From the sequence record PQ657772.1: a stretch of DNA of 64,000 nt; one strand, written 5' to 3'. The DNA comes from Escherichia phage EC.P1. The notes beneath the pieces are model-generated. The model was not told the DNA's origin. It saw only the letters and a program-made list of their open reading frames with translations, and made no database searches. Made by a program: the position numbers and the translations under genes. This document shows, in pieces, positions 11,213 to 11,245 of this stretch. Position 1 is the first letter of the stretch, and the number at the start of each line of letters is the position of its first letter.

Positions 11213-11245
11213 GGGGAACACCATGTTCCCCATTAATCTATATTA
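11213..11245 (-). repeat. conserved hairpin element copy 1 (GGGGAAC-N5-GTTCCCC plus ATTAATCTATATTA) between the two topoisomerase genes
   Basis: ggggaacaccatgttccccattaatctatatta; near-identical to 54893..54925. Confidence 0.6.

Follow-up and report, generated by a model that had tools for sequence, protein, structure and literature searches.

Stem-loops between the cistrons of polycistronic operons stabilise mRNA, as with the REP sequence of malE-malF and in the pap operon. Other described systems join a hairpin to a promoter. In phage T4, genes e, soc, 49 and I-TevI have late promoters that yield late RNAs without the 5' strand of a hairpin, so that translation is freed (PMC3014915). The T4 late box lies about one helical turn upstream of the start, and an AT-rich segment between box and start is a requirement of the promoter (PMC2988020). 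T4-type phages also carry promoter-early stem-loop (PeSL) cassettes, which serve as terminators or attenuators and are possible recombination substrates (Arbiol 2010; Comeau 2014). In bacterial promoter-coupled terminators, a -10 element follows the T-tract (Fletcher et al., bioRxiv 2026, 10.64898/2026.08.19.745784). The CBB paper predicted ATAAATA as the late promoter of phages CBB and GAP32, together with a gp55-like sigma factor and 74 terminators.

The DNA analysed here, a stretch of 64,000 nucleotides from Escherichia phage EC.P1 (the window), shares 99.7-99.9% identity with Escherichia phage fEgEco12 and 86-90% identity with the Asteriusvirus jumbo myoviruses 121Q, PBECO4 and G17 (RaK2-like group). 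We assign it to an Asteriusvirus-like jumbo coliphage. The fEgEco12 genome (374,733 bp), used below for whole-genome counts, was assembled from nine fetched pieces. A 19-nt inverted repeat, GGGGAAC-N5-GTTCCCC, occurs in the window as GGGGAACACCATGTTCCCC at 11213-11231 (site 1) and as GGGGAACTCCATGTTCCCC at 54893-54911 (site 2), 43.7 kb apart, and all genes at both sites lie on the minus strand. We conclude that the finding is real but ordinary, consisting of two terminator-type intercistronic hairpins, one of which is paired with a predicted late promoter. In the reading that we favour with moderate confidence, both hairpins are of the terminator class. The one at site 2 would terminate transcription of a clamp-like gene and be bypassed from the late promoter, and the one at site 1 would be a weak attenuator and decay barrier. 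The features are as follows.

11213..11231, minus strand: site-1 RNA hairpin GGGGAAC-AUGGU-GUUCCCC (5' arm 11231-11225, loop 11224-11220, 3' arm 11219-11213)
54893..54911, minus strand: site-2 RNA hairpin GGGGAAC-AUGGA-GUUCCCC, 8 bp if U54912 and A54892 are paired
11243..13207, minus strand: topoisomerase II large subunit gene (GyrB/Toprim domains), upstream of site 1
11232..11245, minus strand: site-1 "box" TAATATAGATTAAT, made up of the TAA stop of the large-subunit gene (11243-11245) and an 11-nt AT-rich spacer
11209..11212, minus strand: U4 tract UUUUACAAAG after the site-1 hairpin
11190..11205, minus strand: medium-subunit translation initiation region AAGAGA...ATG, with the ATG at 11192-11190
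9780..11192, minus strand: topoisomerase II medium subunit gene (DNA_topoisoIV), downstream of site 1
13302-13278 (region 13243..13302), minus strand: terminator-type hairpin before the topoisomerase operon
13271-13243, minus strand: middle-type promoter TGAGACAAACA...GATACAAT at the start of the topoisomerase operon, a member of repeat family D10
9773-9744 (region 9730..9773), minus strand: strong hairpin closing the topoisomerase operon
9737-9730, minus strand: TATAAATA before a virion structural protein gene, past the operon-closing hairpin
55721..55750, minus strand: sigma70-like or middle-type promoter before the clamp-like gene (TTGAGA-18-TATAAT or GAGACA-16-TATAAT)
54922..55653, minus strand: 243-aa clamp-like gene, upstream of site 2
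54922..54924, minus strand: TAA stop of the 243-aa gene
54914-54921, minus strand: exact TATAAATA, probable T4-type late promoter of the Zn-ribbon/GroES/virion structural protein unit
54884..54892, minus strand: tail AAAUUUUUG after the site-2 hairpin, with a U5 tract at 54889-54885 and AAA between stem and U5
53599..53624, minus strand: terminator closing the Zn-ribbon/GroES/virion-protein unit

Domain matches agree with the gene labels of the initial annotation, which had placed site 1 between two topoisomerase subunit genes and site 2 upstream of an FmdB/GroES pair. A Zn_ribbon_8 (FmdB-like) gene, a Cpn10 (GroES) gene and a virion structural protein gene follow site 2 in that order. For the 243-aa gene on its upstream side, the annotation in fEgEco12 and Turkey3 is sliding clamp, but Pfam and PHROGs give it no function.

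A search of the window at up to three mismatches returned sites 1 and 2 only, and 100 dinucleotide-preserving shuffles returned no match, so the element does occur twice, as first reported; its extents are 11213-11245 and 54893-54924. The two copies differ by one loop mismatch and a 1-nt indel in the AT-rich flank. The flank formula originally given fits only if a gap of 1 nt is allowed (site 1, ATTAATCTATATTA; site 2, ATTA-TTTATATTA). The element at site 2 is accordingly 32 nt long (54893-54924), base 54925 being part of the last sense codon of the upstream gene. Pairwise alignment with 40 nt on either side demonstrated that similarity between the sites ends at about 33 nt, which rules out extended homology around them. 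On the minus strand, site 1 reads TAA-TATAGATTAAT-GGGGAAC AUGGU GUUCCCC-UUUUACAAAGAGACAAUGGA-AUG and site 2 reads TAA-TATAAATA-AT-GGGGAAC AUGGA GUUCCCC-AAAUUUUUG...(37 nt)...AUG, in keeping with the described order of box, hairpin, SD and ATG. Both hairpins lie 10-11 nt past a TAA stop on that strand, and 20 nt separate the site-1 hairpin from its ATG. RNA folding, a check proposed in the initial annotation, gave energies of -11.2 to -11.6 kcal/mol (site 1, -11.6; site 2, -11.2), and both stems have 7-8 bp with five G-C pairs. Rfam returned no match at the gathering threshold for the whole window, and a relaxed search of both sites gave chance-level hits alone (E of at least 0.4). The ATG in the site-1 loop was dismissed as a start codon: relatives lack it, and its frame is not that of the downstream gene.

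The element has no further copies in the complete genome. A regular-expression scan for GGGG[AT]AC-N3-9-GT[AT]CCCC in the 374,733-bp fEgEco12 sequence found the two orthologous places and no third, an outcome that the initial annotation, in proposing a full-genome search, had itself named as counting against its idea. In a BLAST search of 50,697 phage records, a 41-mer matched at one or two places in each Asteriusvirus record and elsewhere only by chance, and a repeat search of the window found no larger repeat family containing the element. These three results rule out a multi-copy dispersed repeat family. Two copies are not a dedicated repeat family, and for annotation the element amounts to two terminator-type hairpins and one late promoter.

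The hairpins themselves are well conserved. Among IMG/VR relatives, both positions still carry a hairpin where protein identity has fallen to about 70%, with the site-1 ortholog present in 12 relatives and a site-2 hairpin following the same gene at 14 IMG/VR loci. At site 1 there are nine distinct hairpins with eight different loops, and every stem is fully paired: stem position 5 shows a compensatory change from A-U to U-A (GGGGAAC/GTTCCCC to GGGGTAC/GTACCCC), one phage has an inserted base pair (GGGGATAC/GTATCCCC) and one has a G-U pair on the sense strand. The 11 distinct site-2 hairpins all differ in their loops (2-5 nt) and are likewise fully paired, with compensatory stem changes from G-C to A-U and from A-U to G-C. 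Pairing is thus intact in all 20 distinct orthologous variants. MAFFT mis-registers 3' arms in such short intergenic regions, and pairs were counted in Python on hand-delimited stems. The combination of free loops with fully paired, compensating stems argues for selection on an RNA helix, unlike a protein operator with its fixed half-site spacing and sequence. On this comparison, we regard each hairpin as old and position-specific, with its base pairing maintained by selection. In most relatives a single base pair distinguishes the two sites (GGGGTAC versus GGGGAAC), so their identity in EC.P1 is lineage-specific.

To place the hairpins in their genomic background, simple hairpins with a folding energy of -7 kcal/mol or lower were catalogued in the intergenic regions of fEgEco12. 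Ninety-two start within 25 nt of a stop codon, and 63 of these have at least four T in the next 8 nt. A second population of 26 hairpins lies far from a stop, within 30 nt of the next ATG, and has T-poor tails; 16 of the 26 have a -10-like hexamer 9-14 nt upstream, and the whole population is confined to the early region and terminal repeats (e.g., ...GTATAATAGTTTACATCAA-GGGGAGAA..TTCTCCCC-ACTAA..AGGA..ATG). Site 1 starts 11 nt after its stop and is followed by four T, and site 2 starts 9 nt after its stop (counting the 8-bp stem) and is followed by five. By virtue of this post-stop position and T-containing tail, both fall into the terminator-type class, and we read them as intrinsic-terminator hairpins among some 90 ordinary stop-proximal ones. 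The G17 record (GenBank MK327931) annotates both orthologous sites as putative ARNOLD terminators. The GC-rich 7-8 bp stem, the short loop, the position about 10 nt past a stop and the T-containing tail are all shared with intrinsic terminators of RaK2-like phages, and "attenuator", one of the options offered in the initial annotation, is in line with this reading.

The sites differ in how closely they match the type. Site 2 passed a terminator scan, with five T in an 8-nt window, although its U5 tract is offset from the stem by AAA. Site 1, with UUUU only, was not listed by the scan. All relatives have a U-tract at site 2, and most lack one at site 1, where they read CCCCGAAAUAAC. The failed scan at site 1, the absence of a U-tract there in most relatives and the AAA offset at site 2 are the weak points of a terminator reading. 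In unit terms, site 2 ends a promoter-to-gene unit and site 1 is internal to the topoisomerase operon. We found no transcript-end mapping for Asteriusvirus in the literature; the termination, read-through and late start discussed below are predictions made from sequence.

The topoisomerase operon runs from its promoter (13271-13243) through both topoisomerase genes to the strong hairpin at 9773-9744. A promoter scan found none between the two genes, so expression of the second requires read-through and site 1 cannot terminate efficiently. Termination there would be leaky at most, and site 1 would most likely serve to attenuate transcription weakly and to shield the mRNA segment upstream of it from decay. 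Like intercistronic stabilising stem-loops, it is internal to an operon, lies just past the upstream cistron and is without an efficient U-tract, although its 7-bp stem is small compared with REP elements. The hairpin is also dispensable, as it is lost in RaK2, where a 569-aa ORF exactly replaces the segment of stop, spacer and hairpin while the ribosome-binding region is kept. Among relatives with a hairpin, its distance to the ribosome-binding site is fixed and that site is highly conserved, AACAAAGAGGCAAAGGAATG at the medium-subunit initiation region being nearly invariant, and the spacer from stop to hairpin varies. The fixed spacing would fit a role for the downstream gene equally well.

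The box at site 1 gives no indication of a promoter. It reads TATAGATT, with two mismatches to TATAAATA, and TATAGACT in 121Q and G17; other genera have unrelated spacers in its place. We take it to be the stop codon and an AT-rich spacer, not a promoter. Site 1 has no sigma70 -35/-10 consensus pair, and the site-2 scan returned only a 9-of-12 match, TTTACG-18-AATAAT, abutting the stem. A sigma70 promoter at either box was rejected, given background-level scan counts and no convincing pair. The "promoter-like box" of the initial annotation therefore survives at site 2, where it is very likely a late promoter, and fails at site 1, where it matches no promoter and is missing from other genera.

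The exact TATAAATA reported as overlapping site 2 is indeed present (54914-54921). This octamer occurs nine times in fEgEco12 against 84 expected, and seven of the nine copies are intergenic. One of these seven is site 2, where a virion protein gene is third in the downstream unit. The other six directly precede annotated structural genes, which encode the baseplate hub, the outer capsid, the major capsid and three virion proteins. The shorter ATAAATA is also under-represented (49 observed, 263 expected), and the fEgEco12 annotation includes two putative sigma factors, g336 and g519. An exact 8-mer before a virion-protein unit, belonging to a motif strongly avoided elsewhere in the genome, resembles the gp55-dependent late promoters of T4, and we conclude that the site-2 copy is probably a T4-type late promoter. 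The segment past the box is G-rich at site 2 (ATGGGGAAC), unlike that of T4 late promoters, and is AT-rich at the other six intergenic copies. An ATAAATA before a hairpin could in part be the A-tract of a terminator.

The site-2 hairpin belongs with the gene upstream of it. At 11 non-Asteriusvirus loci, a hairpin whose stem runs straight into a T-run follows the clamp-like gene, and the downstream gene is a different one (MSTPRFIAD...). As the hairpin stays with the clamp-like gene despite this exchange, it is best explained as the terminator of that gene. The late box would then be fitted into the 10 nt between stop codon and hairpin. RNA polymerase coming from upstream would make a transcript that folds into the hairpin and ends there. 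Applied to site 2, the T4 spacing of box and start puts the predicted start inside the 5' arm, on either the fourth G or the first A of GGGGAAC. Late transcription beginning there, about 6-7 nt past the box, would give Zn-ribbon/GroES/virion-protein RNAs without most of the 5' arm, which would escape the terminator. For an RNA that begins with the fourth G, the computed fold is open in its centroid structure and has an energy of only -2.7 kcal/mol. The predicted late RNA would thus resemble those of T4 e, soc, 49 and I-TevI in missing the 5' arm, but the site-2 hairpin hides no SD or AUG and would act on termination instead of translation.

The usual order in fEgEco12 is hairpin, T-run and ATAAATA, which matches that of promoter-coupled terminators; these likewise combine a terminator and the next promoter within a few tens of intergenic bases. 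Only at site 2 does the box come before the hairpin. A comparable arrangement is found among 13 relatives: upstream of their topoisomerase large-subunit gene, an ATAAATA precedes the terminator by 0-2 nt, in five different sequence contexts. In GAP32, a stop codon lies inside the ATAAATA box upstream of that gene. We suggest tentatively, and at somewhat less than even odds, that a late box set flush against the 5' side of a terminator is a deliberate temporal switch in RaK2-like jumbo phages. Early and middle transcripts would form the hairpin and stop, and late ones would begin within the 5' arm and be unable to fold it. If so, one 30-base stretch would serve to insulate a gene block early in infection and to open the same block late, a transcription-termination counterpart of the translational trick of T4 genes e, soc and 49. 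The recurrent late box abutting a terminator is the sole point of wider interest here; if confirmed by transcript mapping, it would be a simple way to make a terminator conditional on the promoter used.

The initial annotation had envisaged a single repeated cassette of promoter box, 5'-terminal stabilising stem-loop, SD and ATG. Such modules exist in this phage type: the early region and terminal repeats carry TATAAT followed after 12 nt by GGGGAGAA..TTCTCCCC or GGGGAA..TTCCCC hairpins and, another 16-24 nt downstream, by SD and ATG, and the 20 nt from the site-1 hairpin to its ATG and the exact TATAAATA at site 2 are compatible with that layout. The gap between box and hairpin is 2 nt here, not 12, however, which puts a T4-type start (about 6-7 nt past the box) inside the 5' arm and leaves no 5'-terminal hairpin to stabilise the RNA. 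The first three bases of the box are the upstream gene's TAA at both sites, and the site-1 box, as described above, lacks a promoter match and is missing in other genera. Both hairpins follow stops at 10-11 nt and have T-containing tails, against the T-poor early class; the site-2 hairpin follows its upstream gene when the downstream one differs; and no copy exists besides these two, which are in core replication genes. A cassette of this kind is accordingly quite improbable, and the terminator-class reading accounts for the pair instead. The likeness to PeSL extends to an intergenic GGGG...CCCC stem-loop beside a promoter-like box, but the two sites lack a sigma70 -35/-10 pair and number two in 375 kb, within the core replication module and not in ORFan-rich plastic regions; the PeSL-like modules of an EC.P1-type phage lie elsewhere, in the early region. 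Another way for the hairpin to serve the downstream gene, at site 1 and perhaps at both, is for RNase E to cut in the AU-rich spacer and for the stem to protect the new 5' end of the downstream mRNA. In T4, RNase E contributes strongly to mRNA decay, the stem is flanked by AU-rich single strands, most relatives have no U-tract at site 1, and the almost invariant spacing and sequence from hairpin to ATG there, beside a variable stop-hairpin spacer, are as such processing would have them. RaK2 keeps the ribosome-binding region without the hairpin, though, and the site-2 hairpin goes with the gene upstream of it; we consider the RNase E explanation unlikely.

Sequence identity of the two stems raises the question of a shared binding protein, i.e., a GGGGWAC stem serving as a sequence-specific RNA or DNA operator by which a phage protein co-regulates replication genes. 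The same stem does follow two replication genes 43.7 kb apart, and its sequence is kept across genera. This conservation is not special, as the terminators flanking the topoisomerase operon (AACGACGC.. before it and AAGGACGC.. after it) conserve their stem sequences equally. Loop length varies from 2 to 7 nt with free loop sequence, the stems change by compensatory substitutions, most relatives have GGGGTAC at one site and GGGGAAC at the other, and the element exists in two copies and is lost in RaK2. We reject an operator on the variable loop length, the covarying stems and the equally conserved neighbouring terminators, and rate its probability as very low. A further proposal concerns only the origin of the resemblance. 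Starting from two old GGGGWAC stems, stem identity needs one compensatory switch, and short-patch recombination possibly homogenised the already similar stems over the 33 nt; gene conversion or template switching across about 33 nt in an Asteriusvirus ancestor would be the event. Outside the E. coli/Salmonella lineage the flanks and loops are not alike, and within it the similarity breaks off sharply, as expected of such a patch. The site-2 loop is reverse-complemented between 121Q (ATAGT) and G17 (ACTAT), indicating that the palindrome is recombinationally active; the RaK2 569-aa ORF was inserted exactly at the site-1 hairpin; and PeSL stem-loops (GGGG...CCCC) mediate recombination in T4-type phages. 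Set against this, two relatives (L008 and L009) have GGGGAAC at site 1 without flank similarity, so that the stem toggles alone; AT-only flanks that start with a stop codon are expected to match in part; and no intermediate forms are seen among the relatives. We rate a recombinational origin as fairly unlikely.

Together with the hairpins of the terminator-class reading, the neighbouring signals give a clean transcription-unit map for the replication module in an unstudied group of jumbo phages, made up of a middle promoter (GAGACAAAC..TATAAT), terminators and the late box ATAAATA. At the far end of the topoisomerase operon (9730..9773), a terminator is followed by a late promoter, which is the usual order.

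The initial annotation had proposed, for two sites in the window, an arrangement in which a promoter is followed by a 5' hairpin. This arrangement is present in the phage, but it is located elsewhere in the genome, in a set of approximately 20 early modules that lie outside the window and are near-identical to one another in the whole-genome reference, jumbo coliphage fEgEco12:

fEgEco12 ~2.8-19.3 kb, 324.3 kb and 356.6-373 kb (the second terminal-repeat copy): early promoter-hairpin modules

Each early module comprises a sigma70-like -10 sequence (GTATAAT), 12 nt, a hairpin, and then 16-24 nt to the SD and ATG. 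The hairpin is either GGGGAGAA..TTCTCCCC or GGGGAA..TTCCCC, without a T-run. This combination of promoter and 5' hairpin is similar in architecture to the PeSL (promoter-early stem-loop) cassettes of T4-type phages.

Within the window, a recurrent minus-strand motif, TGAGACAAACA-N12-14-TG/GA-TATAAT, is found upstream of replication genes and includes two repeat families:

13243-13271, 30374-30402 and 36797-36825, minus strand: repeat family D10, TGAGACAAACA..TATAAT motif
23861-23907 and 36761-36807, minus strand: repeat family D11, TGAGACAAACA..TATAAT motif

We consider this motif a candidate middle-promoter class. It is comparable to the promoters with a divergent -35 'TGAAACG' that have been reported for phages CBB and GAP32, and at the orthologous place in relatives GAAACAAAGAAACA..TGCTATAAT is present. 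The repeat search also returned a diverged 49-nt unit in four irregularly spaced copies (63-80% identity) at 25621-25972, and clustered short repeats of GCTACTGGTGC type at 45731-45844.

At 13 loci of relatives (L005-L017, ~2376-2440), a terminator hairpin is preceded by ATAAATA at a distance of 0-2 nt, in upstream contexts of five different kinds. These pairs are located upstream of the topoisomerase large-subunit gene, and are the same late-box/terminator composite as that at site 2 of the window (hairpin 54893-54911, minus strand), at a different locus. In GAP32 (L007), the TATAAATA box at 2401-2408 contains a stop codon (2403-2405). In the whole fEgEco12 genome, only two copies of TATAAATA fall inside coding sequence, one of them being the counterpart of the third copy in the window:

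43646-43653, minus strand: third TATAAATA of the window, matching a genome copy inside coding sequence

In RaK2, a 569-aa ORF (L004 4472-6181) is inserted between the topoisomerase II subunit genes, taking the exact place of the stop, spacer and hairpin of site 1 (hairpin 11213-11231, minus strand) and leaving the ribosome-binding sequence AACAAAGAGGCAATGGAATG downstream of it intact; this ORF is possibly a mobile endonuclease-type gene. At site 2, the hairpin loop reads ACTAT in G17 (L002 2087-2107) and its reverse complement, ATAGT, in 121Q (L022/L037). The stem is identical in these closely related phages despite the loop reversal, and the difference is a hairpin 'flip' inversion.

The GC-only palindromic 6-mers GCGCGC, GCCGGC, CGGCCG, CGCGCG, CCGCGG and CCCGGG each occur 0 times in the whole fEgEco12 genome (~12 expected), suggesting restriction-site avoidance. 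AGTACT is over-represented 6- to 9-fold, with 128 copies in the window (21 expected) and 1115 in fEgEco12 (126 expected); all other palindromic 6-mers are at most 2.3 times expectation. This enrichment is common to all RaK2-like relatives and absent from a distant 41%-identity group, and a literature search found no paper on the subject. CAGTACTG occurs 261 times against 4 expected (approximately 65-fold), spread over the entire fEgEco12 genome and in each of the three reading frames; its sites in the window are as follows:

429, 2655, 3852, 4594, 10463, 20237, 23346, 28972, 31079, 33063, 33809, 35413, 43779, 47253, 50675, 51642, 56025, 58693, 62332: CAGTACTG
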